DNA of 64,000 nt from assembly GCF_054482525.1 (NCBI RefSeq), contig NZ_CM137006.1; one strand, written 5' to 3'. The position numbers and the translations under genes were made by a program. The notes below the pieces were generated by a model. The model searched no databases, had not been told where the DNA came from, and saw only the letters and a list, made by a program, of their open reading frames with translations. This document shows positions 1 through 50,261 of the stretch, in pieces (position 1 is the stretch's first letter; the number at the start of each line of letters is the position of its first letter).

Positions 1-688
1 TAGAAAGTCCGGGGGGAGTTACTGAATGTCTGTTAAGTGGTGCCGTGGGTGGAGACTGCTTACTTTTCCACAGTAACTGCAGTCATTCAGGATGCTCAGG
101 AGAGAATATGTCAACGCCACGGGCCGGGCCATTTTCATGCCAGCCAGGATATTTTCAATATTGATGCTGTCTGCTTTTCACCATTTCATCCTCACTGACT
201 GATGTTGTATTTTTGTGCAGCACTACAGATTTGCGTTTCTCTTTTAACTGGTCACGCTCTCCTTTGATATTCAGCGTGGTTGAGTGATGCAGCAGTTGAT
301 TCAGGATTGCTGTTGCCCTGCAACCACCATATCAACTTCTTCCCGGCATGCCGGCGCTGGTATCCAGGCCGGGTTTCGAAGTGAAGCGTTCCTGACGGAC
401 TCATTGATATCCGGGCCGGATGTAGTCATGCAGCATGGAACGTCTACCCGTATACACTGACGGCGTCCGGCCGTGTACATCTCTTCCGCGGTTCAGGGAG
501 CAGCTGTCGCCATGTACTTATTGTCACCAGGAGAGGCATGTACCGCAGCATGCCAGCTCAGCAGTGACAGGATGCCCTTAAGACATCCGTCATGGCTCAG
601 TATGACGACGCCCCCGCTCTGCAGGTGAGCATGCGGGGCCGGGAGCAGCATTCCCGTATTTTGCCGCACCTTCCGGAAGCAACCGGCA

Positions 689-1306
689 TCAGTTACGGTT
701 ATCGTCAACCGTTGTGCGGTATGCCAGGAGCACGTACTGATCCATCAGATCCGCCAGTGCTGCGTTCTGCTTCTGACGGTCGATGATCCATTCCCCCAGC
801 TCTTTTTCTGATTTACGTTTCAGGTTCTCCGTCCAGTCGTCAAGGCTGTTTCCGGTCATTAAATCAAGCCAGCAAAGCCAGACCAGTTTGAGGCGCAACT
901 CAGTGCCACCAAACTGACGGAAGAGGCTGATCAGTTTATTTGCCAGAGAACGCTGCCTCAGACGTTCACATTCAGACAGCAGAATGCCTTCCAGCATCGG
1001 ATGATGAACCAGCAGATGTTCGCTGGTGCATAAGTTCACCACCAGATCATCATCCAGGGGCGGCGTGGCCCGTTTGTCAGAGCCATAAATCAGCCGGTGC
1101 AGACTCCGGGGGACGATGGCAATCTCCGGTTTTTCACCATTGAATGACACCCACCCGGGCGTCAGATTATGGAAGTAGTGGATATTCGGATGACACACGC
1201 CCCAGGATACGGCGTGCCGGGTGAAGCCGGTCAGCCATTTCTGGTAGCTTTCGTGGAGCAGCTCGTAACGGGTCTGATACTGTGGTTTCATTTTCATATT
1301 CCTCAC
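689..1306 (-). CDS. hypothetical protein (205 aa) immediately downstream of alpA
   Basis: Intact ORF in track; same strand, 78 bp downstream of the AlpA-like gene; no motif I can assign. Confidence 0.4.
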   Translation of the reverse strand: MRNMKMKPQYQTRYELLHESYQKWLTGFTRHAVSWGVCHPNIHYFHNLTPGWVSFNGEKPEIAIVPRSLHRLIYGSDKRATPPLDDDLVVNLCTSEHLLVHHPMLEGILLSECERLRQRSLANKLISLFRQFGGTELRLKLVWLCWLDLMTGNSLDDWTENLKRKSEKELGEWIIDRQKQNAALADLMDQYVLLAYRTTVDDNRN

Positions 1307-1384
1307 GGGGGATAACAGGCAGCAGAACGCCGCCGGCAGGCCGGAGATTGCGTCTGCTGTGGGTGAAGGGGCAGTGGTTAAAAA

Positions 1385-1570
1385 TTACGGACGGGACTGT
1401 GCAATACGCGCCTGCAGCCAGGCTTCCACTTCACTTTTCAGCCAGCGGGAGCTGCGGCCAAGTTTGATGGGAGCCGGAAAGGCCCCATCCTTGATGAGCT
1501 TGTAAAACCACTTATCGGTCAGGCCGGTCAGCTGAGTGATAAACGCCATATCGACCATCTGGTCATCCAT
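1385..1570 (-). CDS. alpA: AlpA-family island/prophage transcriptional regulator
   Basis: 61-aa ORF with hallmark motif GLTDKWFYKLIKDGAFPAPIKLGRSSRWLKSEVEAWL; paralogue at 30160..30396. Confidence 0.8.
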   Translation of the reverse strand: MDDQMVDMAFITQLTGLTDKWFYKLIKDGAFPAPIKLGRSSRWLKSEVEAWLQARIAQSRP

Positions 1571-1975
1571 CAGCGAAACTGGGGGGGGTCATAAAAATCT
1601 CCTCCGGATGTTGTTAATCTCAACCGGCGTTGATGATGAAAACAACGCACCACCTTCACCGGCATAACAACCGGGGAGAAACGTAAAAAATCAGTAGGGG
1701 AATATTCCTGCCAGGAGAGAAACGGTTGTGTACAGGCAATACAGGTTGTCTGTTTTGTCAGTGAAGCCGGTATAAACGGAAGATGATTTTGTGTTGCCGG
1801 AATATGGGATGGTATTTTGTCGTGACGGAATCAGTATTTTCAGTGATGATTATTACTGCGCAGGGGAGTACCGGAGAGAAACCACGCCCTGTACCTGCCA
1901 GAGCGGTGGTTTGTATTGACTGAACGGAAGATAAAGCGAGGTAAACACTGTTGTGGTGAGCGGAGAAGACTGAGA

Positions 1976-2767
1976 TTATTCTCTGTAATTACAAACAACA
2001 GTGATCTTATCCGGTTTTTTTACCGTTACGGGTTTCAGGGGATCAATTTTATAGACCGGGGTAATGACCACGCCGTAATTTATGGAGAAAAGCGGGATCC
2101 AGCAATAAACGTCAGGATATTTCTGTGTCTCCGGAATACCTTTTGTGCCAGAGGCCATCAGATCTTTAACGCTCACGAAAAATGACTTCCGCAGATCAAA
2201 AAAGTACTCGTTATATATCACATCCTTTGCCAGCAGGATGACTGCATTACCAACAGCCGATTTTACAGGTGTTTCATCAGGTGGATTATCGTGATTGTAT
2301 ATTGTTCTTTCTATATAAATAAAACAGGCATATTTCGTCTTCTCCCCGGATAGTTGCATCTGGTATTCGCAAATGTCTTTGATATACCGACTTTCAACCC
2401 TTCCAATCATCTTATCCCGGCGATAGTGTCTTTTATGTTTCAGCGCGTACAGAACACCATTTGAACTGTCAAACTCCAGGACACTTCTGGTGAAAAGTTT
2501 GTTTTCCCAGATCTCCAGACAATACTTCTCTGCACTGACGACATTGCGTTTGTGGGGAAGATCCCGTTGATACACTCCATTTAATAAGCGTGACTGCAGT
2601 TCGCCTGCAAGTTGATAGTAACAGTTAATGTCATTAAGGACAGGTGCTGTGGCGTTGAGTAATGTGTTGATTACCTTAGAGCGCGAAAGTTTGTGGGTAT
2701 GACAGTACTCATCCACAATTCGCAGTGTCTCATCACTGGTCATATTGAAAGTTATACGTGTTGTCAT
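1976..2767 (-). CDS. hypothetical protein with N-terminal ribbon-helix-helix-like segment fused to unknown ~220-aa domain
   Basis: 263-aa ORF; N-terminus RITFNMTSDETLRIVDEYCH...SRSKVINTLL fits strand/helix/helix RHH pattern (pattern-based inference); AT-rich. Confidence 0.45.
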   Translation of the reverse strand: MTTRITFNMTSDETLRIVDEYCHTHKLSRSKVINTLLNATAPVLNDINCYYQLAGELQSRLLNGVYQRDLPHKRNVVSAEKYCLEIWENKLFTRSVLEFDSSNGVLYALKHKRHYRRDKMIGRVESRYIKDICEYQMQLSGEKTKYACFIYIERTIYNHDNPPDETPVKSAVGNAVILLAKDVIYNEYFFDLRKSFFVSVKDLMASGTKGIPETQKYPDVYCWIPLFSINYGVVITPVYKIDPLKPVTVKKPDKITVVCNYRE

Positions 2768-3097
2768 GATGAAGTTTTCTGTTAATCATACTGGTTGATA
2801 TGCATAACATTTCATAAAAAATACTGTTAATTCATATAATTGATTTTTTGACTGGTTTTATCCTCGTGTGGTGGAAAGCAGTATTACTGCCACTGTAGTC
2901 AGCATAAATCTATCACACAGAACCACCGAAAATGAAGCATTGCTCAGGGGGAAGCTGCCACTCGTATGAGTTCTCTGAACCATGATAACCAGTATTTTTC
3001 GTTTTGGGTGATTTGTTTATCGTTACAGCTACATACAGTTCATGTACCATTAAAAAATAATAAAGGTTAATTAGTATTATTTATAGAAGTATGTTTA

Positions 3098-3148
3098 TGT
3101 AATTCTACCGTGTAAATGAACCCTGTAATTCTACCTTGTAAATACACC
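3098..3148. repeat. tandem direct repeat (2 x ~25 bp) in AT-rich intergenic region
   Basis: Read directly: tgtaattctaccgtgtaaatgaacc followed by ctgtaattctaccttgtaaatacacc; extra tagaagt copies nearby. Confidence 0.6.
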
Positions 3149-4182
3149 TTGTAACCAAGTCCTGTAGAAGTCTGTCTCATAGAAGTATCTGTGCAGTGAT
3201 ATTCTCTGTAGTAGTACTTGTAACTCTGTCCTTAACTCTCTCTTCAGTAATGTAGTCCCGCAACACCTGAATATAAATCTGTAATGTTCACACACTGACT
3301 GTAACGTGCTTTGTTAAGTAATGTCTGCTATTTTTTTCTGTTATTTTTCCTGTTGTTTTCTGTATTTTGTTGTATGGTGTAATAACTATTCTGAACCCGT
3401 CATCACCTTTATAGCTAAGAGTATGACTTCGCCAGTGTTGATACTGTGGATAACGGTGATTAAGGAATTACTGTTAATGATCTGTTCCTGCAGCTCACCT
3501 GATGAGTTTTGGTAGTAATACGTAAAAGAGTATGCCTCATGTCATTAAAAAGTCTTCCGGAGTGTTGTTTAACCCTGTACCTCTGTTACTCATGTAGTAC
3601 GTTGCGGAAAGCTACGTTAATTGTAATATCTGGTTATGGCGTTATGCCTTCAGTATTAAAAACATCTTTTACCGGAGAAACTGGGAAGTGGAAAGGCTTT
3701 CGGGATAACGTCAGGCCATTATGACGATATTACGTTAATCACAGTACAAGATAACGAGAGGGTAATGGAATTTTAAACCAGAGTAGTTCCACTGTTGTTC
3801 ACTGGAAAAAGTGATTTCCCACGCGCGTTATAAGCTTACTCCAGAGGAGATGGAAGCCTTCAACTCTGCGGTCGATCACCGGCTGGCAGAACTGACCATG
3901 AACAAACTTTACGATCGTGTTCCCGCTTCAGTCTGGAAATATGTTACCTGATAAATGTTTCTGATGAAGTACAGTCGTCACAATGACATCACTTCAGATA
4001 TTATCTGCGCTGTGATTGACTGTCACGTATGCCGTTCTCTGTATGGTTCTGATACCCGGGTGTGGTCCCACTTTCTCTGTGGCGCCCGGGGAGTTGTGAA
4101 CCTGCACGTCTTCGTGTGATAACGTTTTCTTCAAAAATTACGCCAGCGCTTCTTCCTGTGTTACAGAACACGAGGAAGAAAC

Positions 4183-4782
4183 ATGAAGACTTACAACACC
4201 AATCCCGGTTACGAAATGGATCCCCAGCTCCTGACACACTTTAACCAGCATCTGGATTCATTATTCGGGGTATATTCGAAACTGTTACCGTTCAGAATGG
4301 ATTTTGCTTACCGAAAAAACACCCTCAGCTACAGATGTGCCTGCAGGTACGCCATGTGCGCGGAGATACTGCGACTGATTAACGAAGTGGGAGAGAAACT
4401 GGTCGGGTATGCCTGGGTAATGGAATATACGGAACGTAAAGGGCTTCACATTCATTTTGTGGGCTATCTGAACGGTCAGAGCCACAGGAGTTCGTATCTG
4501 GTATCCAGATTGATGGGAGATATCTGGAGGCGGGTTACCGAGGGTGATGGTTACTACCACTGGTGCCGGTTTAATAAAAATTATCCGGTAAACATTAACC
4601 ACGTCATTCACTATTCAGATCACAAAGCGGTGAATGCCTTACGCTATGCCATCAGCTACCTGGCCAAACGAGAACAGAAAGAATGTGGCATCATCCTGAA
4701 ATGCAGCGGGCTTCCTGAAAAAAGTAATCGGGGTCGACCGCGACTGGGCAGCCCCCTGCCGGAGACTTATTCTCTGGTGTAA
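4183..4782 (+). CDS. inovirus Gp2-family protein (YagK/YfjJ-like, rolling-circle initiator homologue)
   Basis: 199-aa ORF; motifs LPFRMDFAYRKN, GLHIHFVGYL, ALRYAISYLAKRE shared with paralogues at 23552 and 28669. Confidence 0.65.
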   Translation: MKTYNTNPGYEMDPQLLTHFNQHLDSLFGVYSKLLPFRMDFAYRKNTLSYRCACRYAMCAEILRLINEVGEKLVGYAWVMEYTERKGLHIHFVGYLNGQSHRSSYLVSRLMGDIWRRVTEGDGYYHWCRFNKNYPVNINHVIHYSDHKAVNALRYAISYLAKREQKECGIILKCSGLPEKSNRGRPRLGSPLPETYSLV

Positions 4783-5090
4783 GACCCTGAACGACAACTA
4801 CGGGCTGGCGCTAATTGTTACAGTCGGTTCCGGAGGCCACTTCAGGGACTCTGCGCATTTTTTACGACATGGCTATTCCGTATGAACCATACGGAGATTT
4901 AACCATGGCACATTCTTTACCATTCCTTCCGGCAACCGATACAGCACATCCTCCGATGTCCATCCCTGCCTGCTGACAGTTTTTTACGCCGGAGGGCCAT
5001 TGTGTGACAACCACAGTGCTGTAACAGCAACCAGCCTGCTTTACCCAAACTCCAGTCCAGATTTTAACTGAACCGCCATTCACACCCTGA

Positions 5091-7290
<2,200 letters not shown>

Positions 7291-7302
7291 GCTTTTCATA
7301 CT

Positions 7303-7803
7303 TTATGAACGTACATCAGCAAAATGCGTCAGTAATTTTTGATTAATGTCTTTAAACAGTTCACGTTCATCATAGGTCAGAGGACTCCAGATTTCTTTCA
7401 GGTACTGGTTTTGTGTAAGGGTAATGCCCTGAATAAAGGACAGGCCTTCAGATGTCAGACTGATTTTTTTAGCACGGCGGTCCTCTTTGCTATCAGTTCT
7501 TTCTGTATATCCGGCTTTTTCTAAAAAATCTGTAATGCGGGTAATGTTTGTTCTGGTAAACTGGAGTTCTCTGCTGATCTCTGAAGGCGAAAGACAATGA
7601 TTATCTGCTGTAGATAATACGGTGAGAACCATATATGTTGAGTAATTTATTCCGTATCCTCCCAGCATTCTCGATATATTATCCTGTATTTTCTTGTTTG
7701 CACGGATACAGAGTTGTATCAAAAGATGTTCCTGACAGGGATACAGGGGATCTTTGTTTTGTTGATATTTGATTATCTTCTCTAATGAGTGTATGTTTTC
7801 CAT
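7303..7803 (-). CDS. MarR-family winged-helix regulator (possibly fimbrial-operon X-type, PapX/SfaX-like)
   Basis: 166-aa ORF with MarR-like wHTH region (LSPSEISRELQFTRTNITRITDFLEKAGYTER...DRRAKKISLT); subfamily from memory only; 3' end lies 13 bp from IS100. Confidence 0.55.
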   Translation of the reverse strand: MENIHSLEKIIKYQQNKDPLYPCQEHLLIQLCIRANKKIQDNISRMLGGYGINYSTYMVLTVLSTADNHCLSPSEISRELQFTRTNITRITDFLEKAGYTERTDSKEDRRAKKISLTSEGLSFIQGITLTQNQYLKEIWSPLTYDERELFKDINQKLLTHFADVRS

Positions 7804-8603
7804 TTAATCATTTTCCATATACTGAAACATTCTGCCTTTATATAAAAGTGCATCAGTCATCCGGTAAATATCTACTTTTCACAACAATCTATGACTGCCT
7901 GATATCTGTATGAGTGAGGCGGCCCGGCAGAGAGTAAGAGCAGATTCCTTCAAATAAAAGAACATAAATGTTCATCGCTGACAAGATGGTGAAAGAATTA
8001 TTTATACTGTTAAATCAGTATAGATAATCTATCTGCCCCTGTGCTTTGTTGAACGAATCCTGACGGCCCTGAATATTCATGCAATATTATTTTATTCAGT
8101 GCACGGTAATATCCTGATTTCCATAGCATGGTGGATATGTGTATCCGGGATGGATGTTTACCAGAACCTTCTCTGTTCCAGTGTGTGGAGTTTTACAGAA
8201 GAGGCGACTGTATGCAACTCTTGCCCCGTAACTGTCTTTATTCGTTTCTCCACACTCTCCGGACATTGTAAATTCCAGATGTGTGGCAGTGTGTTTTTCG
8301 TAAATCGTACACAATGCATTTTTACACGGAGTTCAGCCAGTCGTATCACTGAGAGTTTTTTTTCTGATTTGTACCACTCATGCAGCAGTGATAAGGAGAT
8401 ATTTTCTCTGTCGGGCCAGCAGGGGCGGTGCCACCTGTTTAGTTTTCTTATGTTTGGTAAAAGAGAGGCTAAAATATATACAACAGGCGTATGTAATGAT
8501 TCATATTGTTAATCATTAACCAGTAAGAATTAATGTAGTGGATCGGTAATTCAGGACACCTCGAAATCCTGTTAATGTTAAAACAGTGAAAATGGGGTGA
8601 TGC

Positions 8604-8921
8604 ATGAGCAAAACTCGTCGGACTAAACGCACCTTTTCCCCGGAGTTCAGGCTCGAAGCTATCGAGCAAGTAGTTAAATACCAGCGCGATGTCAGAGAAG
8701 TCGCGCTGGCACTTGAGCTCAATCCTGACCATTTGCGTAAATGGATACGGTTGTATAAGCTGGAACTTCAGGGTATTGAGCCCGCTGGTAATGCCATACC
8801 CCTGAACAGCGAGAAATTCAGCAGCTTAAAAGCGCAGATAAAGCGCCTTGAGATGGAAAAAGAAATACTAAAGCAGGCTGCCGTGCTGATGAGCGAAATC
8901 CCCGGCAAGCTGTCGCGCTAA
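8604..8921 (+). CDS. IS3-family transposase OrfA; downstream OrfB truncated after ~35 codons (IS remnant)
   Basis: 105-aa ORF with IS3-type OrfA pattern (FSPEFRLEAI..., leucine-zipper-like LEMEKEILKQAAVLM); orfB-like frame stops near 9030. Confidence 0.6.
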   Translation: MSKTRRTKRTFSPEFRLEAIEQVVKYQRDVREVALALELNPDHLRKWIRLYKLELQGIEPAGNAIPLNSEKFSSLKAQIKRLEMEKEILKQAAVLMSEIPGKLSR

Positions 8922-9325
8922 TCACACTGCTGAAAGCAAAGCGGCCAGTGCGGATTATTTGTCATTTATTCGGTGTTCACCGTAGCGTTTATTACGCGCA
9001 GGTGAAGCGTCCTGTTAATGTATCAGCGCCAATGATATAAGACAGTAATTAGGATTCGGACGATTTCCTGGACTGCTTTATTATGCCAGCCCGCATTGTT
9101 GGCGGTACATTTCAGGGATGACTGCACCCAGCGAAAATTTTATACGCCGCTCGTTATACCATCTGATGTAAGCATCCACATGCCGCATGAATTTTTCAGG
9201 CGTGATACCCAATCATTTACGCCCATAATATATTTCAGTTTTCAGTCTGCCGAAAAAGCCTTCGCATGCAGCATTATCAGGCGAGCATCCTTTACGGGAC
9301 ATTGAGCGAATAAGGCCTGCTGTAT

Positions 9326-10608
9326 TCACTCTTTCCAGCCAGGCCAGCGATAATGCCCACCTCTGTCACTGTGTATCACCGGTCGTTCGCCAGCATTTAA
9401 CGTTTCGACAGCGTTATCCAGCATAGTGTTGACCAGTTCAGCATCGGGGCGTGTACTGAGAGACCAGCTCACAACTTTTCTGTCGAAGCAGTCCACCACC
9501 GGTGATAGCCAGACTTTTCCTGCAGGAAGCTGGAACTCCGTGATATCTGTCAGCCATTTCTGATTAGGTTGCTCCGCCTTAAAATCTCTGGCGATAAGGT
9601 TATCCGGAGAAGGTCCGATTTCTCCGCAATATGAGCTGTAGCGGCGATGACGGTTACGGCTGACGACAAGCTGTTCCTCCACCATAAGTCTGCGTACAAC
9701 CTTTTCTGATAGCCGATCCCCCTCATGCCTGAGCATCGCATGCAGGCGACGATAGCCATAACACTGGTAATTACTGTTAAATATATCTGTCAGCATCGTA
9801 CGTATCGTGGCGTATTTATCACTGGCTTTCAGTGCAGCCCGGTGATAAAAATAACTGCTACGGGCAAGGCCCAGAACATGCAGTAATTCTGTCAGGGGAT
9901 ATGTTTATCTCAGGGCATCAGTAATCTTTGTTTTTTCTCTGTTGTTCAGGTGACTGATGCTGATGCCCGGGTCTTTTTTTATTATTTCCTCCGCTTTTTT
10001 CAGAATATCCAGTTCCATCTGCCGGCGGCGTATTTCCTGATTCAGTCGGGCGACTTCCTCCCGCAACGCATCGCGTTCTGCCTCCAGGGAAGGGGCGTTA
10101 TGTTTACGCATAGTCTGGTAAGCACTGTTGCCGATAATTTCATCTTTCCATTTATACAATACCGCGCGACTGACACCAATACGCCTGGCGATTTCACTGG
10201 CTGATCCTTGTCGTGTACAGAGTACCATGACAGCCTGACGTTTGACTTCTGGTTCAAAGGACGCAACCGGATTGGTCTTACTGGTAAATACACGTCGTCT
10301 GTCGGGGGAACGTTCATTAACCCAGCGAGCGAGCATATCGGTACAGGGATAACCCAGAGTCCTGCTGGTAAACGCCAGGCAGCAGCCGTGGTTAAGATAA
10401 TGTTCAACGGCAACCTGTTTTTGCTCATCGGAGTAACGGTGCTTATGACGAATGGATTCTTTTGATCCGCCACCTGCTTCCCATGAACGGATCCAACGCC
10501 GCAGATTTCTTTTCGAAGGGTAGCCCAGTTCGCGTACGACGGGGCCAGCTTCTTACCATATTTGAAATAAAGCTCAATGGTGCGAATTTTTTGTTCTTCA
10601 GTAAACAT
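9326..10608 (-). pseudogene. degenerate IS3-family transposase (orfA/orfB split across three frames)
   Basis: ORFs 10042..10608 (MFTEEQKIRTIELYFKYG), 9905..10336 (HTH plus zipper LNQEIRRRQMELDILKKAEEIIKK) and 9326..9796 (integrase core ...HSDRGGHYRW) are in different frames. Confidence 0.55.
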
Positions 10609-10858
10609 GTTTCATCTCCTGAGAGTCCAGGAAATCGTCCGCATCCCCTAACGGTCAAAAATCGTGGCGTTGATACAGGGGAAATCCGTAGTTTTTGATG
10701 CCAGCCATAACGTGTTTGACTATAAAGTATTACGAAAGGACTTTAATGAGCCCCTGGAATAATTCATTAAAGTAATTTACTTCGCTATCCTTTTCCCAGT
10801 TACTCACAAAGAAAAATATTCATAAAATAATTCCCGGGCTGGCAGCCCGGGATGATTA

Positions 10859-12121
10859 CTATTTTAATGGATTGTTAATCTTTGCATATTCAAACGGGCT
10901 GATACATTGTTCTCTGTTCGCACCCAGAAAATCTGCCCACCACTGTAGCATCAGTCGACGTTCTTCCAGATGTTCTGCTTTATGGATATATGCAGCACGT
11001 ACACCATTACGCTCCTGATGGCTCATCTGACGTTCCACAGCATCGCGGGACCACAAACCTGATTCAATCAATGCACTGCACGCCATCGCCCGGAATCCAT
11101 GACCACAGACTTCCTGGGTTGTGTCATATCCCATCACCCTCAGGGCTTTATTTACAGTATTTTCACTGATCGGTTTACGCGGGTCATGTGCTCCCGTAAA
11201 GATCAGACCATTTTCACCAGCCCATGTCTGTAGTTCTGTCAGTATGGCTACAGCCTGTTTGCTGAGTGGCACAAGATGTGGTGTTCGCATCTTGGAGCCC
11301 CGGTGTGAGTATTTTACGCCTGGCAGAGGTTCGCGTTCGGCTGGAATAGTCCACATGGCATTGTCAATATCAATTTCAGACCAGCGGGAATATCTGAGTT
11401 CACTGGAACGAATAAAAACCAGTAAATTCAGCATAACTGCCAGTCGGGTGACAGGCTGACCTTTATAACCGTCAATACGCGACAGAAGTTCAGGCAGGCG
11501 TGAAAGATCCAGAGCAGGGCGATGCTGGCGTTTTACCGTGGTCAATGCACCAGCCATATCCAGAGCCGGGTTATATCTGATGATGCCAGACTGTACGGCA
11601 TAACGCATTACAGCAGATATTCTTTGCTGCAGACGACTGGCGATTTCATAAATTTGTTTTGCTTCTGCAGCACGAACAGGGATAAGCAGGTCCGGGGTAT
11701 TGAGTGTTGTGATATCCCGGTTGCCGATAAAGGGGAAAACGTGTGTCTCGAGGCTTTTGATTACTTTATCGCTGTGTGATTGTGCCCATTGTTTATTACT
11801 GGCATGCCAGCGTCGTGCAATATGTTCAAAAGAGAGTTGTAAATCAGGGACTACTTTTTTAGCTCTTTTTTGTTCGCAAGGGTCAATCCCCTCTGAAATC
11901 AGTTTTCGGGCCTCATCCCGTTTTGTACGAGCTTCGGAGAGAGAAACTTCTGGATATACACCAAGTGCCAGAGTCTTCTCCTTACCCAGAATACGATAAC
12001 GGAGACGCCAGTAACGGGAACCATTAGGATGAACCAGCAGGAACATGCCAGCCCCGTCAGTGAGTTTATAAGCCTTGTCAGTGTGCTTTGCAGCCCGGAT
12101 TTTTGCGTCAGTCAGTGCCAT
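10859..12121 (-). CDS. int: P4-type tyrosine integrase
   Basis: 420-aa ORF; N-terminal MALTDAKIRAAK, C-terminal catalytic region HGFRAMACSAL...YIHKAEH; partial copies at 52262..52335 and 62508..62690. Confidence 0.9.
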   Translation of the reverse strand: MALTDAKIRAAKHTDKAYKLTDGAGMFLLVHPNGSRYWRLRYRILGKEKTLALGVYPEVSLSEARTKRDEARKLISEGIDPCEQKRAKKVVPDLQLSFEHIARRWHASNKQWAQSHSDKVIKSLETHVFPFIGNRDITTLNTPDLLIPVRAAEAKQIYEIASRLQQRISAVMRYAVQSGIIRYNPALDMAGALTTVKRQHRPALDLSRLPELLSRIDGYKGQPVTRLAVMLNLLVFIRSSELRYSRWSEIDIDNAMWTIPAEREPLPGVKYSHRGSKMRTPHLVPLSKQAVAILTELQTWAGENGLIFTGAHDPRKPISENTVNKALRVMGYDTTQEVCGHGFRAMACSALIESGLWSRDAVERQMSHQERNGVRAAYIHKAEHLEERRLMLQWWADFLGANREQCISPFEYAKINNPLK

Positions 12122-12318
12122 AGTTCAGCCTTCTGAATGCGTTAAAGAGGGTACAAATTCTGTCGAACTGGGGTATACCCGCAATTATACCCACACAATG
12201 GGGTTGATGTGGGGGGAATCTGGTTGAGTTCGGTAGAATTGATTTGGAGGCAGAACGCTTAAATTGTGGCGTTCTGAAACGAAAAACGGACCTCCGTGGA
12301 GGTCCGTTGATATGAATT

Positions 12319-12337
12319 TGGTGCCCGGACTCGGAAT
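12319..12337 (-). repeat. 19-nt copy of the 3' end of tRNA-Phe (att-type direct repeat), not a complete tRNA
   Basis: tggtgcccggactcggaat is the reverse complement of ATTCCGAGTCCGGGCACCA; identity to tRNA-Phe stops after ~19 nt; ~200 bp upstream of int on the same strand. Confidence 0.55.
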
Positions 12338-12584
12338 GAAACTGGTTATATAACCAATTGTTTTGTATCGACTGTTTTATCCTTGTTCTTTTTGAGGCCA
12401 CCAATGAGGCCCCCATGTGCAATTCGAATTCTTTTGACGCTATAATCCCTCTTTCTTGTGGTTTGTTGTAATCATTTTGTCTGGTTCGATATGCTGAATC
12501 GCGGAATCGAAGTGACAACAAAATACAGAGATTTATAAAATACCTGGCTACCTGTGTTAGGGAGCGTTAACGCACAGATTTTGT

Positions 12585-12911
12585 TTATGGCTGCCAGAAA
12601 TGATCTGATGGTTTGTCGTCTGGCTCTGCAAGTACCCTGTTGATATCCCGGGAACCATGAACGATACGTTCGATACGAACTTCAGTATCCAGTACCCTGA
12701 ACAGCAGAAGGTAACGACCATACGAACAACCTCTGATCCCAGCCCCTAACTCGGGTCTTTCTCTGTAGAGTACTGGCGATTCGGCTATCAACAGACATTG
12801 TTGGTAAAGCTCTTCGGTAAAACTGATTGCACGGACAGGATTATCCTGAGCGATCCAGTCACCTATAGCTTCAAGATCGTGTTCTGCTAATGGTGAAACA
12901 GTCAGTTTCAT
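12585..12911 (-). CDS. parE: ParE/RelE-family type II toxin
   Basis: 108-aa ORF overlapping upstream antitoxin gene by 4 bp; typical small-toxin size and arrangement. Confidence 0.7.
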   Translation of the reverse strand: MKLTVSPLAEHDLEAIGDWIAQDNPVRAISFTEELYQQCLLIAESPVLYRERPELGAGIRGCSYGRYLLLFRVLDTEVRIERIVHGSRDINRVLAEPDDKPSDHFWQP

Positions 12912-13171
12912 ATTGGCTGTTCACCTTCTGCCATCTTTTTGTATTTGTGCGTCAGTCGCCCGAATACCTCTTCAGCACTTTTACTTTCACCGCTGTTGAT
13001 GCCTGCGGCCACGGCGCTCTGGAGTGATTCAAGCTTTATCTGCTGTTCCCGTTCTTCCAGAGCACGAAGTCCGGCACGAATGACTTCACTTGTATTGTTG
13101 TACCGACCACTTTCTATTTGTTCGCGGATAAACGTTTCAAAGTAAGGACTGAGGGATACACTGGTAGGCAT
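12908..13171 (-). CDS. parD: ParD-family (RHH) type II antitoxin
   Basis: 87-aa ORF; N-terminal RHH pattern VSLSPYFETFIREQIESGRYNNTSEVIRAGLRALEE. Confidence 0.7.
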   Translation of the reverse strand: MPTSVSLSPYFETFIREQIESGRYNNTSEVIRAGLRALEEREQQIKLESLQSAVAAGINSGESKSAEEVFGRLTHKYKKMAEGEQPI

Positions 13172-13242
13172 GGTTATTTTCTCGCCGATTGATTACTATC
13201 AATTAATAATAGTTAATATTCGCGAATTGTAAAATACCTCTT

Positions 13243-14109
13243 TTATGCCTTGCGGCTTTTGTTCACTGTGCTTGCCAGGGCTTCCGGGTAGTGTCTGGCA
13301 ATAATATCATTAAGCCTGTCAACCAGCTCTGGTTTCCTGAACGTGATGTGCGCGGAGCCCTTCTTAAAGTATCTGATGCTGAACATCTCATCTTCATAGT
13401 CCTCTTTACCCTGAACAGACTGGATGTGATCATCCAGATGAATGGTGATGTTTTCCCGGTTGTCGGGGATCGGTTTGCCGCTGAACAGGTGCAGCATTCT
13501 TTCCAGATCGGCAAGTCGATCGGCCTGTTGTCCGGTGATAAGATGAAACCCCCACCGGTCCCACCTCACCAGATTGTTGACGATAATTTTACTGCCAAAT
13601 TTGCAGGGTGAATTGGTTTTGTAATTCCAGCTCAGTCCTCTGAAAACGTTGAGCACCCCTCGCTCAAACACTTCATCTTTGTTCTGGTGCAGTTGTTCAA
13701 ACGTGCTCAGGATATTTGCTTCGCTGATTTCCGGAAAATTATCGTACTCCAGTGACCGGTACCATGTATCACGGGCTTGTGCATCCATTAATGACAGCAT
13801 CCCTGAACGTTGCATCAGATCACGCCAGATTTCGCGGTCAAGGTTGCGGGTGATGGCTTTCATTGCGGTTTCCGGTTTTTCCATCAGCCAGCAACCGCAG
13901 CGAAAATCCTGTTTCATGGCCCAGTCCAGTGCAGTTTTACCTCCGATGCTTTCCGTCAGCACCGAGATTTCTGCCAGTTGCCGGATAAGTGTGTCGATTT
14001 GCAGCAGCGCACTCTTTCGTACAGCCAGAATGTGGCGGATGCTGGTTGAGCCGATAACGTCCGTATGCCCGTTGACCACTTCCGGACGGGGGGCTGTGAT
14101 TTCAGACAT
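13243..14109 (-). CDS. hypothetical protein, position and size of the DUF4942-type island gene
   Basis: 288-aa ORF at the distal end of the CP4-like backbone; family assignment from memory. Confidence 0.45.
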   Translation of the reverse strand: MSEITAPRPEVVNGHTDVIGSTSIRHILAVRKSALLQIDTLIRQLAEISVLTESIGGKTALDWAMKQDFRCGCWLMEKPETAMKAITRNLDREIWRDLMQRSGMLSLMDAQARDTWYRSLEYDNFPEISEANILSTFEQLHQNKDEVFERGVLNVFRGLSWNYKTNSPCKFGSKIIVNNLVRWDRWGFHLITGQQADRLADLERMLHLFSGKPIPDNRENITIHLDDHIQSVQGKEDYEDEMFSIRYFKKGSAHITFRKPELVDRLNDIIARHYPEALASTVNKSRKA

Positions 14110-14193
14110 AATCGATATTCCTTTTTGCAGATAAATGAAAACGCCAGCCCTGTTCAGGCTGGCGTCAGTGGAATGAAGTCTGGTGAGTAAGAC

Positions 14194-14391
14194 TCACCGG
14201 TTCTGTTGCAGAAGCTGCAACTGGCGCAGGATACGGATATCCTCCCTGGCCTGTTCGATACAGGGCAACAGTGCTGCCGAATCCGTTCTATCCTCATCGT
14301 TGTCAAAGATAATTCCCGATTCGCAGTCGATATTGTCCTGTAGCCACGCAATCAGAATATCCAGTGCGGTTTCCGTGGTTAATGATTTCAT
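14194..14391 (-). CDS. small hypothetical protein (DUF957-like); start chosen at internal Met of ORF 14194..14436
   Basis: MKSLTTETALDILIAWLQDNIDCESGIIFDNDED...; typical small gene following the cbtA region. Confidence 0.4.
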   Translation of the reverse strand: MKSLTTETALDILIAWLQDNIDCESGIIFDNDEDRTDSAALLPCIEQAREDIRILRQLQLLQQNR

Positions 14392-14402
14392 GTTGTTCCT
14401 GG

Positions 14403-14894
14403 TTACCAGTCGAAAGTGGGCAGGTCCGGCAGACATTCAGCGCTGGCATCCAGATGAATGAGACTGACGCCATAACGTCGGGTAAGTGTGACAACCAGAC
14501 GACGGAACGTTTTTGACAGGCCCAGGCGCTTAAGCCGCAGAACCGGGTATGACCACGCATCGGTACGTAACAGATATCCGCTACCTGTGAAATGAATCCA
14601 TTCTGATTCGCCGGTGCCATTCGTCTGATGTGACAGCGAGTACAGCCAGGCGTTGTCCTTTGCCGTGATATGCGCGGTACTGCAGCGTATGCCGGTAAGG
14701 GCCGCCGCAGATGATGGCGTGCGCTCTGCTGATGTCCGGTCAGATTCATCAACAACACGAAGGGAGTAACCGTTATCGCAGACCACGTTAATCAGTTCAG
14801 CGAGAGTAACACCATCGACGTCAACGACAATGCGCCCCATGTTCAGTGCCTGCACGTTAATGCTGTCGGCTTCCAGCGTCAGGGCCAGTTTCAT
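14403..14894 (-). CDS. YeeW-like / DUF5983-type hypothetical protein
   Basis: 163-aa ORF overlapping cbtA stop by 4 bp; conserved island position. Confidence 0.5.
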   Translation of the reverse strand: MKLALTLEADSINVQALNMGRIVVDVDGVTLAELINVVCDNGYSLRVVDESDRTSAERTPSSAAALTGIRCSTAHITAKDNAWLYSLSHQTNGTGESEWIHFTGSGYLLRTDAWSYPVLRLKRLGLSKTFRRLVVTLTRRYGVSLIHLDASAECLPDLPTFDW

Positions 14895-15268
14895 TGTTTC
14901 GCCCCCGGATGTTTACCCAGGGTAATGTTATTTACCGTTCTGTAATTGTCGCGGGCCATCAGGCCGGTTGCCCGGCGGGCCCGGAGGATATCAATACTGT
15001 TTATTAACTGAGAACGGGTACAGGCGCTGAATCCTGGCTGGTCGGTACGTACCAGTGCGTATTTTTCAACGAGAAAGTTCACCGCATCGCACAGTGAAAT
15101 GCCTGCCTCAATATGCTGCTCAATCACACGTTCATCAGCGAACGGTGTGTCATTCAGTGTGAGGCCGTAATGCTGGTCCAACAGTCGGGTGAGCAGTGTC
15201 TGCCAGATGGTGACGGGAGACGGGCAGCGCGATGCCTCCCGTACGTGTGTGTCAGGTAATGTTTTCAT
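14891..15268 (-). CDS. cbtA: CbtA-family toxin (YeeV/YkfI/YpjF-like)
   Basis: ORF 14891..15370 trimmed to Met at 15268 (MKTLPDTHVREASRCPSPVTIWQTLLTRLL...); follows cbeA. Confidence 0.75.
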   Translation of the reverse strand: MKTLPDTHVREASRCPSPVTIWQTLLTRLLDQHYGLTLNDTPFADERVIEQHIEAGISLCDAVNFLVEKYALVRTDQPGFSACTRSQLINSIDILRARRATGLMARDNYRTVNNITLGKHPGAKQ

Positions 15269-15314
15269 CTTAAGTTCTCTGTAACTGGTAGTGCTAAAGG
15301 TGAGATATTCGGGG

Positions 15315-15689
15315 TTATGAGGTGGTTGCGGGTGCCAGTGTCGGATAAACAGCCATATAAACGTAACCACAACTGCTGAGGGTATCGGCTTTGCAGGTCA
15401 GCCCTTTTGCATACAGCGTGACGGTATGCTGATGGCGGGGATTCAGTTCACCGCTGGTGAGCATGAGTTCCAGTTGTTTCATCAGCAGCGGAAAGGCCTG
15501 GTCCAGATGGTACGCATCCGCGTCGCTGAACCGGCCTCTGATACCGGCGCGGTCTGCAAGGTAATGCAACCGGTTACCCTCCTGCACCAGACGTGCCCCA
15601 AAACAGGGCGTCACGGTGCAGGGTAGCCCCCACCAGGGGCGGTCGTTGTTATCGTCGGGATGCGTTGTCCCGGGGAGAGTGTCTGACAC
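15315..15689 (-). CDS. cbeA: CbeA-family antitoxin (YeeU/YfjZ/YafW-like)
   Basis: 124 aa; MSDTLPGTTHPDDNNDRPWWGLPCTVTPCFGARLVQEGNRLHYLADRAG closely resembles YeeU as recalled. Confidence 0.75.
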   Translation of the reverse strand: MSDTLPGTTHPDDNNDRPWWGLPCTVTPCFGARLVQEGNRLHYLADRAGIRGRFSDADAYHLDQAFPLLMKQLELMLTSGELNPRHQHTVTLYAKGLTCKADTLSSCGYVYMAVYPTLAPATTS

Positions 15690-15768
15690 GATAAAATCCT
15701 CACAGAAAATTGGTTAAGAATGGTCCGGTGGTGGCGATAATTCTGCTCTTCTGAATGCCCTTCCAGAC

Positions 15769-15990
15769 TCAGTTCAGGGTGACGCTCATCAGCCGGACAT
15801 ACGGGCCAAAACTGTCCTTACGGCGTTCAGCAAACACGGCCAGCACACCGGGAATATCCTGCACTTCACGACCGGTATACGCTTCAGCACTGCCGTGCCA
15901 GCGGTATTTGCCGGTACAGAACGGAAAAAGACGGGATGCCGGATGCTGACGGTGAATACGCATGGCTTCGCCACGGGTGATGATTTTCAT
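15769..15990 (-). CDS. DUF987-family protein (YeeT/YkfH-like)
   Basis: 73-aa ORF in conserved position between radC-like gene and cbeA. Confidence 0.65.
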   Translation of the reverse strand: MKIITRGEAMRIHRQHPASRLFPFCTGKYRWHGSAEAYTGREVQDIPGVLAVFAERRKDSFGPYVRLMSVTLN

Positions 15991-16058
15991 AGTGGGATAC
16001 CTCTGAAGACAGAAGATAAAAGTGAAAACAGGTGTGATATGGTTGTGGCGGTGACGGG

Positions 16059-16550
16059 TTAAAGCAGACCGTGTTCCGCAAAGGAGAAAACCTGGTTGCC
16101 ACCAACTATCAGATGGTCCGGTACCCGGATATCCACCAGGGCCAGTGCCTGTACCAGGCGTTCCGTGATAAGGCGATCTGCCTTACTGGGGGTGACTTCA
16201 CCGGACGGGTGGTTGTGTGCCAGTATCACGGCAGCGGCATTGTGGTACAGGGCACGTTTAATTACCTCCCGGGGATGGACTTCCGTGCGGTTGATGGTGC
16301 CTGTGAAGAGGGTTTCACCGGCAATCAGCTGATTCTGGTTGTTCAGATACAGTACCCGGAACTCTTCCCGCTCCAGTCCCGCCATGTTCAGAATCAGCCA
16401 TTCCCGTGCCGCATGCGTGGAGGTGAAGGCCACACCGGGTTCATGAAGATGGCGGTCCAGGGTTTTCAGGGCCCGCAGAATGAGGCTGCGCTCGCCGGGC
16501 GTCATCTCTCCGGGCAGAAAGGAAAGCTGTTGCATTGTGCTTCTCTCCAT
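16059..16550 (-). CDS. RadC-like JAB/MPN-domain protein (YeeS/YkfG/YfjY-like)
   Basis: 163 aa; JAMM motif region AVILAHNHPSGEVTPSKAD. Confidence 0.8.
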   Translation of the reverse strand: MERSTMQQLSFLPGEMTPGERSLILRALKTLDRHLHEPGVAFTSTHAAREWLILNMAGLEREEFRVLYLNNQNQLIAGETLFTGTINRTEVHPREVIKRALYHNAAAVILAHNHPSGEVTPSKADRLITERLVQALALVDIRVPDHLIVGGNQVFSFAEHGLL

Positions 16551-17036
16551 TCAGTCGATGATGCGCATAATGGCGTTGCATTCCGGATGCTGCAGGGCGT
16601 AATCCCGCAACCGATAATAATGGACCGTCATGGCATAATTCTCTGTACGACAGGCGTGATGACTGTACGCCATCAGACAGGCGGCAATGCCGGCGGCTTC
16701 CGGGCTCATTTCAGCGCGGTTGCCGTTCATGGCATTGAACAGTACCCATGTTTCGTCATCATCGTCATCCGGTTCGGGTACCATAAATGCCCCACCGTTG
16801 TTCAGGGTGTACAGATTCCAGATACCACCGCAGTAGTCTTCGCAAAGACGGTCCATCCAGCCGAAGACACGGGGCTCCAGGGTCACCCACTGTGGAATGA
16901 GGCCAAAATGTTGCGGCCAGAAACTGATGCGCTGTTCATCAGGGACGGGAGTGGCAACCAGTTGAGACTGGTTATTCCCTGGTGCAGTGGTTACGGAAAC
17001 AGAAGGCGTGGTGGAGCTATGCGAAAAGGTTGTCAT
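16551..17036 (-). CDS. antirestriction protein, KlcA/ArdB-like (YfjX/YafX-like)
   Basis: 161 aa; acidic stretch PEPDDDDDETW; conserved position upstream of radC-like gene. Confidence 0.65.
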   Translation of the reverse strand: MTTFSHSSTTPSVSVTTAPGNNQSQLVATPVPDEQRISFWPQHFGLIPQWVTLEPRVFGWMDRLCEDYCGGIWNLYTLNNGGAFMVPEPDDDDDETWVLFNAMNGNRAEMSPEAAGIAACLMAYSHHACRTENYAMTVHYYRLRDYALQHPECNAIMRIID

Positions 17037-17127
17037 GAGATGATTCCTTATAAAAAGTAAATGAATGGAAGAATGCCCGGGGACTGGTACAGACGTGAGT
17101 CAGGGTTGCACTTTCAGGGAAACAGCA

Positions 17128-17946
17128 TCAGCGCATGCTCTCCAGCAGCGTTTCTGCCATCACCCACAATGCGCGATTGAGCTTAATGTCCGTGTCGATG
17201 CTGTGAATGGCACGGGTGTGGATACGTTTTCCTTTAGCGCTGCGACCAGAAATCCCGCCTTTCAGCATATTTTCCTGGATGGTCTGATAAGCACTCCACA
17301 GGTCCTTACCGTAATCCTCCCGGCGTCGTGGCGTCAGAATGTCGGCGGTGGTGACGGGCTGATGTTCGTCACCATAACGGTAAGTCAGTGCCGCCTGTGC
17401 CAGCGCCTGGCGTGCCGGTGGCGGCAGGACCAGCGACTGCATGGCATCACGCTTTTCCTCAATCCGGTCAAAAACGCCCACCACTTCGTAAGCCCCTTCA
17501 ATGACTCTGTCCACCACATTTCCCCGGTGCGGAACACGCACTTCCCCCAGAGACTGACCACAGACGCAGCCGTTCTGGCAGACGAACCTGAAGTAACCCG
17601 GCAGCATCTGGTAGCTGGAGGTACCGTCATGGGAGTTCAGCAGGATGATTTCAGGGACATGTTGTCCGTTTATCTCCCCGTCACGGCGCAGACGCAGCAT
17701 GTGTTTGGTATACCCCCGGCGGCCCGGGTCACGTACGCGGGTCTGGCAGGCAAAGAAGGGCTGAAAGCCTTCCCGCTGCAGGCTTTCCAGCACGGTGATG
17801 GTGGGGATCCAGGTATAGTTCTCGCTTCTGGATGTGTGCTTATCTTCCCCGAATACGCTGGGGACGACCTGCATCAGTTCTTCGCGAGTTAAGGGGCGGT
17901 CACGGCGTATCTGGTTCGCATAACCAAAACGACTTGCTAATCGCAT
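17128..17946 (-). CDS. DUF932-family protein (YfjQ/YafZ-like)
   Basis: 272-aa ORF; size and position match the island DUF932 gene. Confidence 0.65.
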   Translation of the reverse strand: MRLASRFGYANQIRRDRPLTREELMQVVPSVFGEDKHTSRSENYTWIPTITVLESLQREGFQPFFACQTRVRDPGRRGYTKHMLRLRRDGEINGQHVPEIILLNSHDGTSSYQMLPGYFRFVCQNGCVCGQSLGEVRVPHRGNVVDRVIEGAYEVVGVFDRIEEKRDAMQSLVLPPPARQALAQAALTYRYGDEHQPVTTADILTPRRREDYGKDLWSAYQTIQENMLKGGISGRSAKGKRIHTRAIHSIDTDIKLNRALWVMAETLLESMR

Positions 17947-18275
17947 GATTTGCTCCTTATGAATGAGTTAGCGATATAAATGAAAAAGCCGCGCCTCCCG
18001 GAGAAGACGCGGCCTGATGGATGAAATGAATGACGTTTATTGTCTGAGAAGCCCTTCACTGGCGAGCCACACATTAAGCTGTTTTCCGGCATCGGATTCA
18101 AAATTCCAGTACCGCCAGCGCAACTGACCTTCAGCATTACGGATAACCAGCCGGAAATGCGTTCCCTGGTCATCTTCAATAAGCACATTGCGGTAAGCTG
18201 TTGTGACGGCAACCGCCTGTTCGCGTGAGAAAGGGCCTTCGGGCAATTAAACAGGGTGACAGTCCGACATACCGG

Positions 18276-18953
18276 CTATTTTCCGATAAATTCAACGCTG
18301 GCACCGGTGGCATTACCGTCAGCACCAACCGTGACGGTCACTTTGTCGTACGCACGGTCTTCAGGATTGAACACTTCAAACTCAACCTTATTGCCTTTTA
18401 CTTCGTAAGAGCCAAAATCAGCGGTTTCTGTTGTTTCCTCGTCATATTCCCGGGCGTATGCCAGCCGGGCAGCCTGCAGGACGGAATCTTTATTAATGGC
18501 GGGTGTCTGTTTCGGGGAAAAACCGGCAAGTGATGTGACAAATTTCGGACAGACCTTCAGCATATCACCGCGGGTGAATTCCATTCGTACACCAAATGCC
18601 TGTAAAACGGACACATCACGCTCTGCTATGGAGTGAACGGCTTTTTTGACCATTTCCGGCGCCTGTCCGACTTCCACCTCAACAGCCCTGAATCCTGTCT
18701 GCTGATTACACATTTGTGATGTGGGGATCAGGTTACCGTTAATACTGATACGGCTGCCCAGGAGCGTCTGTACGCCATTCGGGCATCCCTGCATCAGGCC
18801 GGTAATACCAATCGTGCCATTTTTCAGCATTACCAGCGCCTGACCATCTTCCGTCATGGTCTGACACCAGCCGTTTTTGACAGCCCAGTTACCGGCGGAG
18901 GTGGAGAAGGATGCCACAGTGAACAGCAGGGGAAAAAGCATTCTGGTATTCAT
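18276..18953 (-). CDS. hypothetical exported protein (225 aa) with N-terminal signal peptide
   Basis: N-terminus MNTRMLFPLLFTVASFSTSAGNWA looks like a signal peptide; no other assignable motif. Confidence 0.45.
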   Translation of the reverse strand: MNTRMLFPLLFTVASFSTSAGNWAVKNGWCQTMTEDGQALVMLKNGTIGITGLMQGCPNGVQTLLGSRISINGNLIPTSQMCNQQTGFRAVEVEVGQAPEMVKKAVHSIAERDVSVLQAFGVRMEFTRGDMLKVCPKFVTSLAGFSPKQTPAINKDSVLQAARLAYAREYDEETTETADFGSYEVKGNKVEFEVFNPEDRAYDKVTVTVGADGNATGASVEFIGK

Positions 18954-19071
18954 GACTGACCTCTGAAATTAAAGAGCGTGTTATTGATAATGACAGACGG
19001 TATACGGCAGTGGTTACCGTAATCCGTTGTCGTGTAAAGGTATACGGTTGCCACGGGGGACTCCGGGGCGC

Positions 19072-19956
19072 TCAGAACAGGTGATCCCACAGTGTGACCA
19101 GTAGGTGGATAATGCGGGCCCGGGCTTTACGCAGAAGCTGTAACATCCAGGCCGGAAAACTGAACCGGGCAACGGCGTCGTCAAAACTTTTCCCGATGGC
19201 GTCACCAAAAGTCTGTTGTGCGTGTTTCCGGGCCTGTTCAGAGCGGTTTTCCCCCCGGATATGTGAATAAACCGCGCTGGTTGCCTGTGGTGGCAGTGCG
19301 TGGATCATCAGTGACACCAGTGCCGGAAGATTCCAGCCGACAGGCGCTGCAACGGAGAGTACCGGAAATGATGACGGGAACAGGGTGGCCACCCGGGCTG
19401 TTACTGTCGCCAGTGAGAGTTCCTGCTGACGGGACGGGCATTTTTCTGCGTCGTTCCATTCTTCAGCAGGAAACACGCGATCGGCATGGCTGAGAACAAA
19501 CAGAAAACGCGAGGGATCTGCACCTTCATTCAGTAAAAACTGATGCATGGCAATATCAGCAGCATACGCACGTTCATCAGCCCGCAGGATCCAGATAATC
19601 AGATCCAGTTCCGGCAGTAACTGACGGTAAAGCTCCCGGTATTCCTGATCATGCTGCGGTGTTTCACCAATGCCGGGCAGATCGACCAGCGTCATTCTGC
19701 GTTCACCAATCTGCAGGGTGAGGCGATGAGCCTGGCGGGTGCAGCCGTTCAGGGGATGCGTGGCGCAGATACGGGACTGAAAAATGGCATTACACAGACT
19801 GCTTTTGCCGGTGCCGGATTTACCCATAATGCCAATCACGGGCTCGTAATGAATAACACCGTGGAGATGTTCAAGGATTTTCTGGCGAATTTCTTCAGGA
19901 AGAAACGTCAGATATGATTTCACTTGTGCGGAGAGGGAAGAATGGCTGAATGACAT
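19072..19956 (-). CDS. YeeP/YkfA/YfjP-family GTPase
   Basis: 294 aa; P-loop GIMGKSGTGKSSL and DLPG switch motif. Confidence 0.75.
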   Translation of the reverse strand: MSFSHSSLSAQVKSYLTFLPEEIRQKILEHLHGVIHYEPVIGIMGKSGTGKSSLCNAIFQSRICATHPLNGCTRQAHRLTLQIGERRMTLVDLPGIGETPQHDQEYRELYRQLLPELDLIIWILRADERAYAADIAMHQFLLNEGADPSRFLFVLSHADRVFPAEEWNDAEKCPSRQQELSLATVTARVATLFPSSFPVLSVAAPVGWNLPALVSLMIHALPPQATSAVYSHIRGENRSEQARKHAQQTFGDAIGKSFDDAVARFSFPAWMLQLLRKARARIIHLLVTLWDHLF

Positions 19957-30159: not shown

Positions 30160-30396
30160 ATGTTGACCTCAATGACAGGCCACGACAGCGTGTTGCTGCG
30201 TGCTGACGATCCCCTGATCGACATGAACTACATCACCAGTTTCACCGGTATGACCGACAAATGGTTTTACAAGCTGATCAGTGAAGGCCATTTCCCGAAA
30301 CCCATCAAGCTGGGCCGCAGCAGCCGCTGGTACAAAAGTGAAGTGGAGCAGTGGATGCAGCAGCGAATTGAGGAATCACGAGGAGCAGCAGCATGA
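30160..30396 (+). CDS. alpA: AlpA-family transcriptional regulator (second copy)
   Basis: 78 aa; GMTDKWFYKLISEGHFPKPIKLGRSSRWYKSEVEQWM. Confidence 0.8.
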   Translation: MLTSMTGHDSVLLRADDPLIDMNYITSFTGMTDKWFYKLISEGHFPKPIKLGRSSRWYKSEVEQWMQQRIEESRGAAA

Positions 30397-35919: not shown

Positions 35920-35979
35920 CTGCACATTCGGGATATTTCTCTATATTCGCGCTTCATCAGAAAACTGAAGGAACCTCCA

Positions 35980-37619: not shown

Positions 37620-38198
37620 ATATCAAGCGACTTCTCCTATCCCCTGGGAACACATCAATCTCACCGGAGAATATCGCTGGCCAAAGCCTTAGCGTAGGAT
37701 TCCGCCCCTTCCCGCAAACGACCCCTGGAAGCCCCGTAGCGACGCGGAGAGGGGCGAGACAAGCCAAGGGCGCAGGCTCGATGCGCAGCACGACATAGCC
37801 GGTTCTCGCAAGGACGAGAATTTCCCTGCGGTGCCCCTCAAGTGTCAATGAAAGTTTCCAACGCGAGCCATTCGCGAGAGCCTTGAGTCCACGCTAGATC
37901 TATCTCATCTGCGCAAGGCAGAACGTGAAGACGGCCGCCCTGGACCTCGCCCGCGAGCGCCAGGCGCACGAGGCCGGCGCGCGGACCCGCGCCACGGCCC
38001 ACGAGCGGACGCCGCAGCAGGAGCGCCAGAAGGCCGCCAGAGAGGCCGAGCGCGGCCGTGAGGCTTGGACGCTAGGGCAGGGCATGAAAAAGCCCGTAGC
38101 GGGCTGCTACGGGCGTCTGACGCGGTGGAAAGGGGGAGGGGATGTTGTCTACATGGCTCTGCTGTAGTGAGTGGGTTGCGCTCCGGCAGCGGTCCTGA

Positions 38199-38849: not shown

Positions 38850-38854
38850 GCTTG

Positions 38855-38907
38855 ACACTTTATCACTGATAAACATAATATGTCCACCAACTTATCAGTG
38901 ATAAAGA
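38855..38907. promoter_or_regulatory. tet operator palindromes in the tetR-tetA divergent promoter region
   Basis: actttatcactgataaaca and aacttatcagtgataaaga palindromes between the divergent genes. Confidence 0.7.
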
Positions 38908-38954
38908 ATCCGCGCGTTCAATCGGACCAGCGGAGGCTGGTCCGGAGGCCAGAC

Positions 38955-40726: not shown

Positions 40727-40753
40727 CGGAGCGGGCCTGCTACCAGTCGTCGG

Positions 40754-50259: not shown

Positions 50260-50261
50260 TA

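Follow-up and report, generated by a model that had tools for sequence, protein, structure and literature searches.

The DNA analysed here (the window) is a 64,000-nt stretch of contig NZ_CM137006.1, RefSeq assembly GCF_054482525.1. An integrase gene, int2, lies on the minus strand at 10859-12121; it is an intact open reading frame of 420 aa and encodes a P4-type tyrosine integrase of the canonical GI-pheV 'intP4' kind. The DNA to the left of int2 is referred to as island 2. The DNA to the right of a short tRNA-Phe copy at 12319-12337 is referred to as island 1, and the integrase gene of island 1 as int1.

The int2 protein has the Pfam architecture Arm-DNA-bind_3 + Phage_int_M + Phage_integrase (PF13356, E = 3e-29; PF22022, E = 2e-27; PF00589, E = 2e-16). 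It is 54.4% identical to the phage P4 integrase over 97% of the length (E = 9e-150); the NCBIfam domain model PRK09692 matches at 245 bits, which is below its 434-bit cut-off. Residues R238, H341, R344, H368 and Y378 are invariant in an alignment of the int2, int1 and P4 proteins; by family assignment (Arg, His-x-x-Arg, His, Tyr), we take these to be the catalytic residues. With its three domains, full-length homology to P4 Int and catalytic residues, int2 belongs to the P4-type tyrosine integrases.

The sequence TGGTGCCCGGACTCGGAAT at 12319-12337 (minus strand) is the reverse complement of the last 19 nt of E. coli tRNA-Phe, ATTCCGAGTCCGGGCACCA. These 19 nt cover the 3' part of the T-loop, the 3' strand of the T-stem, the 3' strand of the acceptor stem and ACCA. 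The copy has the orientation of int2 and lies 197 nt upstream of the int2 start codon. The original prediction described an intact P4-type integrase with a 19-nt match to the tRNA-Phe 3' end about 200 bp upstream and no full tRNA at the site, and this description is correct; re-inspection of the 64 kb with ARAGORN and Rfam found no tRNA, hidden or degenerate forms included. The copy is exact and occurs once in the window, even when three mismatches or indels are allowed. The probability that it is a chance match is negligible: none of 100 shuffles gave a 19-nt match with three mismatches allowed, and both its orientation and its distance from the integrase are correct. Moreover, the match is present in related strains, with the junction conserved in more than 200 genomes.

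The interval between the copy and int2 (12122-12318, minus strand) comprises the integrase leader and forms the int2-proximal att arm. It is identical to the interval between pheV and the integrase gene in GN03551 and ST131. A strong terminator-like hairpin is found at 12285-12308 (minus strand), followed by a T run (AACGGACCTCCACGGAGGTCCGTT TTTCG), 10 nt past the copy of the tRNA 3' end. This hairpin belongs to the int2 arm; in the native pheV flank, another hairpin occupies that position. Where int2 abuts a tRNA gene, the hairpin comes right behind the tRNA 3' end and is plausibly an island-supplied terminator for the tRNA.

On the other side of the copy is the distal att arm of island 1 (12338-12584, minus strand), which is non-coding and 247 nt long; the same arm joins the native pheV flank in SMS-3-5 and the integrase-remnant arm at pheU in DETEC-P881. 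Next, still within the distal part of island 1, is a toxin-antitoxin pair, ParE (12585-12911) and ParD (12908-13171), both on the minus strand; these were identified from open reading frames and RefSeq annotation, and ParD also from NCBIfam TIGR02606. The CP4-like (yee/yfj-type) backbone module of island 1 occupies 13243-19956 (minus strand). Going by its open reading frames and by how RefSeq annotates strain 746, which is 100% identical here, its order is DUF4942, DUF957, DUF5983, CbtA, CbeA, DUF987, RadC, antirestriction, DUF932, DUF905, a hypothetical gene and a GTPase. CP4-like genes were predicted to begin immediately beyond the repeat; the module is present, but the 247 non-coding nt and ParE/ParD come first.

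The remainder of island 1 extends from 19957 to the end of the window at 64000 (minus strand) and was delimited by annotations and by comparison with the island at pheU in DETEC-P881, which is 99.992% identical to window 15372-64000 over 48.6 kb. It contains sul2-strAB-tetRA-floR, pap remnants, a dGTPase, thymidylate synthase, type I restriction-modification, an integrase relic and a Tia-like outer membrane protein; an AlpA-family gene is found by Pfam match at 30160-30396 on the plus strand. In relatives, int1 and the full tRNA lie ~17.6 kb past the position of the window end, and island 1 is ~63-69 kb in size (62.6 kb in strain 746).

The resistance region of island 1 (35104-43069) carries sul2, aph(3'')-Ib, aph(6)-Id, tetR/tet(A), floR and a DUF3363 gene, and is flanked by ISCR2/IS91-type fragments. 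Strain 746 has only sul2 and an ISCR2 fragment at this place; DETEC-P881 has the full resistance set, plus ISEcp1-blaCTX-M-55 inserted in cbtA. Further right, 45626-62276 resembles a phage-defence or nucleotide-metabolism cluster. It encodes a dGTP triphosphohydrolase-family protein, thymidylate synthase, an XRE regulator, a MazG-like protein, a DEAD/DEAH helicase (1138 aa), type I restriction-modification M and S subunits and an AAA ATPase. An integrase pseudogene fragment which lacks the N-terminus is found at 62499-62683 (minus strand), next to a Tia/Hek-like outer membrane protein gene (62898-63644). A search of the window tolerating indels found no tRNA-Phe repeat near this fragment. It may be a relic of an older accretion, given that tia is at the same place in AH50. 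No conjugation genes are visible in island 1.

The part of island 2 in the window is interior sequence (1-10858, minus strand) which runs off the left end; it consists of decayed, IS-ridden cargo downstream of int2, as seen from the annotation of strain 746 and GN03551, a blastn map and a Pfam match to AlpA. It includes an AlpA-family gene (1385-1570), IS100 (5403-7204), a MarR gene and IS3 fragments (8604-10608). Across island 2, decay is apparent in IS100, IS3 and IS66 fragments, in pseudogenes and in a damaged distal repeat. A 90-nt tail of a phosphoethanolamine transferase gene at 10673-10762 converges on int2 and is cut by an IS3-family element; other genomes retain more of this gene beside int2.

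None of the complete genomes searched contains the whole window. The genome from which the window derives is outside this set, so that its full tRNA, int1 and distal repeat have to be taken from near-identical relatives. Strain 746 is 100% identical to the window across the junction region (10600-13300); in a blastn map, window 5337-35960 and 42865-64000 match it at 99.97-100%. The counterpart of window 1-5341 is displaced by ~30 kb to the left in strain 746, which has no counterpart of window 35960-42865 (strAB-tetRA-floR). In strain 746, a complete pheV adjoins yqgA and speC; it lies 62.6 kb to the right of the 19-mer and has the same orientation. Directly after it come int1 (394 aa, WP_001218742.1) and then raffinose-utilisation genes. 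The pheV/int1 layout is the same in AH50, whose sequence is collinear with window 1-13300. The int1 and int2 proteins are 42% identical; both are P4-like.

The complete array in strain 746 therefore reads pheV, int1, island 1 (62.6 kb), the 19-bp core, int2, island 2 (56.6 kb), an imperfect 23-bp repeat, the native flank and kps. The 23-bp repeat is a third direct copy, TTCGATTCCGAGTCCGG-CACCA (record 881134-881151, outside the window), which closes island 2. It has a 1-nt deletion and adjoins an IS110 fragment and kps. This copy was missed by a search allowing mismatches only; it was recovered by comparison with SMS-3-5 and by an indel-tolerant search. Compared to strain 746 (record 903546-930771), the genome of the window is without ~27 kb of island 2, including cit genes, an acnB-like gene, malX, MalY/PatB and others. 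The breakpoint is beside IS66/IS100 sequences, and the shorter form is also found in GN03551 and AH50.

Each island is also found apart from the other. GN03551 matches window 1-12340 at 100.0% and has the order yqgA, full pheV, int2, with no island between the tRNA gene and the integrase gene. This arrangement is widespread: in thousands of complete genomes (e.g. ST131), a sequence with 97-98% identity to int2 plus its leader is joined to an entire tRNA-Phe gene, and the match to the window stops at 12340. SMS-3-5 has island 1 alone at pheV, with an identical int1 protein; its island 1 ends in DUF4942, ParD, ParE and a 19-bp attR, followed by the native terminator and kps. In DETEC-P881, island 1 is at the other tRNA-Phe locus, in the order dicD, pheU, int1 ... 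ParE, 19 bp, leader, integrase remnant (K-12-type), cadC.

The int2 arm is likewise kept at pheU in K-12, beside an integrase pseudogene. In the K-12-like strain BM28 (L005 2758-3190), 114 nt of int2-type leader and a 160-nt integrase pseudogene lie between pheU and cadC. This indicates that the 'empty' pheU locus of K-12 is the scar of a decayed P4-type island. The 114 nt beside the core were also considered as native chromosome, as K-12 has this stretch at pheU without an integrase. This was rejected: the integrase pseudogene follows in K-12-like strains, and a different sequence makes up the true native flank of pheV, which is visible in SMS-3-5 and, in strain 746, at the third repeat.

Flanking sequences (45 nt either side of the core) were compared at 12 sites. 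There are three kinds of left arm (tRNA body, island 1 distal arm and island 2 distal arm) and three kinds of right arm (int1 arm, int2 arm and native pheV flank). All expected combinations are found. The 19-bp core is the sole stretch common to all 12 sites, and the identity of the flanks changes exactly at its edges. Such a pattern is what conservative site-specific recombination inside the core leaves behind.

The flank comparison also bears on whether the 19 nt could be the stump of a tRNA-Phe gene left by an IS-mediated or illegitimate deletion or rearrangement, in which case there would be no att site. The region is IS-rich, as this would require, but the stump reading is very improbable. 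No IS end adjoins the repeat, and relatives have an intact pheV within the array. To the nucleotide, the breakpoint is the one found at the island 1 attR of SMS-3-5 and DETEC-P881, and it falls on the core edge at 12 of 12 sites; flanks which switch exactly at the core edges exclude a ragged deletion of a tRNA gene.

The 19-nt repeat is thus very probably the internal att site of a two-island tandem array in the tRNA-Phe gene pheV, in which the attR of island 1 is fused to the integrase side of island 2. This agrees with the original prediction, in which the repeat was the distal att site of a second island lying between the integrase and the real tRNA gene; both the relatives and the flank pattern fit. 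The full tRNA-Phe gene and the further att copies expected of such an array are found in relatives, with pheV beyond island 1 and the third copy closing island 2 in strain 746.

The array can be explained by two successive integrations. The genome would first have held a canonical GI-pheV (island 2), with its intP4-type integrase gene directly downstream of pheV. Island 1, circularised, ~63-69 kb in size and carrying the divergent P4-like int1, would have arrived second and recombined, presumably by means of int1, at the 19-bp core of the tRNA 3' end. A complete tRNA gene would have been rebuilt beside int1; the old core copy, still attached to int2 and its leader, would have been pushed to the far end of island 1.

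We infer the order of arrival, island 2 first and island 1 second, by parsimony. It is favoured by the unoccupied state in GN03551, which is 100.0% identical to the window, by the decay of island 2 and its damaged distal repeat, and by the near-identity of island 1 at two different loci. GN03551 could also be a precise excisant instead of a precursor. The same array would result if island 1 had been resident at pheV and island 2 had later entered its distal core. A second element may enter either core copy of a resident island (PMC7192596), and SMS-3-5, with island 1 alone at pheV next to the native flank, represents the precursor needed. This reverse order is nevertheless unlikely. The fusion of int2 to a full tRNA-Phe is the widespread state, and in GN03551 it is attached to an island 2 which is 100.0% identical to the window; island 2 is full of IS elements and pseudogenes and has a damaged distal repeat; and island 1 is 99.99% identical across strains at two loci, implying recent movement. 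Island 2 first, followed by island 1, remains the preferred sequence of events.

The junction int2-19 nt-ParE/ParD-DUF4942 is present in 204-217 of the 5426 complete E. coli genomes (~4%; at least 80% of the query covered), and int1 is beside tRNA-Phe in 529 of the 5426. The array may thus have been inherited by the source strain or gained by homologous recombination, and not formed there, as its junction is common to so many genomes. The odds are about even that it originated elsewhere, in one or a few events, and came into this genome by vertical descent or through homologous recombination over a large segment of the pheV region. The occurrence of an identical junction in many hosts speaks for such an origin. 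Against it, identities at the junction range from 97.4 to 100%, with different int2 alleles and different downstream genes, and the pheU junction of DETEC-P881 is a separate event. An origin elsewhere does not dispute the nature of the repeat. On sequence comparison, the varied identities and downstream content, together with the separate pheU case, suggest that several independent integration events lie behind the junctions.

The two islands differ in their prospects for further movement. Island 2 has an intact integrase and an AlpA-family gene, but its distal repeat is imperfect and it is heavily decayed; it looks fixed. Island 1 may still be able to excise and to move between the two tRNA-Phe loci: its repeats are perfect (19/19), int1 is intact in relatives and it carries an AlpA-family putative excisionase. 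Identity of 99.992% over 48.6 kb at two loci points to recent transfer or to intragenomic relocation of island 1.

Island 1 may even be an active, non-conjugative multidrug-resistance island of ~69 kb (sul2-strAB-tetA-floR; CTX-M-55 in one copy) which moves from one tRNA-Phe gene to the other (pheV, pheU) in unrelated E. coli, stacking on resident islands, with int1 using the 19-bp core of intP4. This is offered tentatively, with a probability somewhat short of even; it is suggested by the 99.99% identity over 48.6 kb at different loci, the 529 of 5426 genomes with int1 and the perfect repeats. If true, stacking of island 1 would create substrates for hybrid islands. A literature search found no paper describing island 1 as a mobile resistance island.

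The main value of these results is for annotation. The integrase gene at 10859-12121 is no orphan and the 19-mer is no broken tRNA gene; the pair of them shows where one of two separately acquired islands gives way to the other. Virulence and resistance cargo on the two sides of 12319-12337 consequently differs in history and in prospects for mobilisation.

The structure itself is a standard tandem array formed by site-specific integration, which is ordinary and already known. The mechanism of tandem-array formation is described in the TIGER paper (PMC7192596), and Islander lists 125 tandem arrays in 2168 genomes, defined by the features seen here (PMC4383910). As in these arrays, one end carries a full tDNA, every island comes with a tyrosine integrase and a tDNA 3' fragment of its own, and all copies are in one orientation; at the internal junction, the core links one island's distal arm to the integrase arm of the next. 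In strain 746 and AH50, and presumably also in the genome of the window, island 1 has a full, co-oriented pheV at its far end. Each integrase gene lies beside its own core copy, int1 at pheV and int2 at the 19-nt copy. Both islands are closed by a tDNA 3' fragment, which is 19/19 for island 1 and imperfect for island 2 (strain 746). Elsewhere, the members occur apart or the site is unoccupied (GN03551, SMS-3-5, DETEC-P881). Nothing essential differs from the Islander and TIGER arrays; in the present case, integrases which are only 42% identical share a 19-bp core, and the outermost repeat is imperfect. In addition, and of mild interest, island 1 has the appearance of a resistance-bearing island that moved recently and uses both tRNA-Phe loci.

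Both members of the array correspond to known forms of GI-pheV. Nhu et al. (2024, PMC11537424) described GI-pheV intP4 alleles, 19- and 23-bp repeats and the divergent integrase of SMS-3-5; the group includes PAI I-CFT073, EC958_GI-pheV and PAI V-536. Island 2 is a GI-pheV with an intP4-type integrase, modular flu/yee content and a 23-bp imperfect attR before kps; island 1 is a GI-pheV of the SMS-3-5 type, with a divergent integrase and a perfect 19-bp attR. The 19- and 23-bp distal direct repeats match the attR types in Table 1 of that study (PMC11537424). GI-pheV is treated there as one island per strain, defined by the integrase beside pheV, and the word 'tandem' is not used (PMC11537424). 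By this definition, a displaced intP4 would count as cargo. In the array, intP4 is not adjacent to pheV, from which the SMS-3-5-type island displaces it by ~63-69 kb; in relatives without island 1 it is. The separation of intP4 from pheV by island 1 identifies island 2 as a displaced GI-pheV. A comparable case is strain 12009, in which LEE lies beyond attR (PMC11537424).

Two more distant systems can also be compared. Satellite phage P4, which integrates at leuX, has a homologous integrase (54%) with the same three-domain architecture, and a tRNA 3' end likewise serves as its core, at a distance of 150-200 nt upstream of int; a core of this kind means that integration regenerates the tRNA. It differs from the present islands in that their target is a tRNA for Phe and not Leu and their cargo is a large non-phage island, in which no P4 replication or helper-exploitation genes were seen. 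The E. coli K-12 cryptic prophages CP4-44 and CP4-57 share with island 1 the distal backbone module (GTPase to DUF4942) and AlpA-family regulators; integration site and cargo differ, and island 1 ends in an extra ParDE pair.
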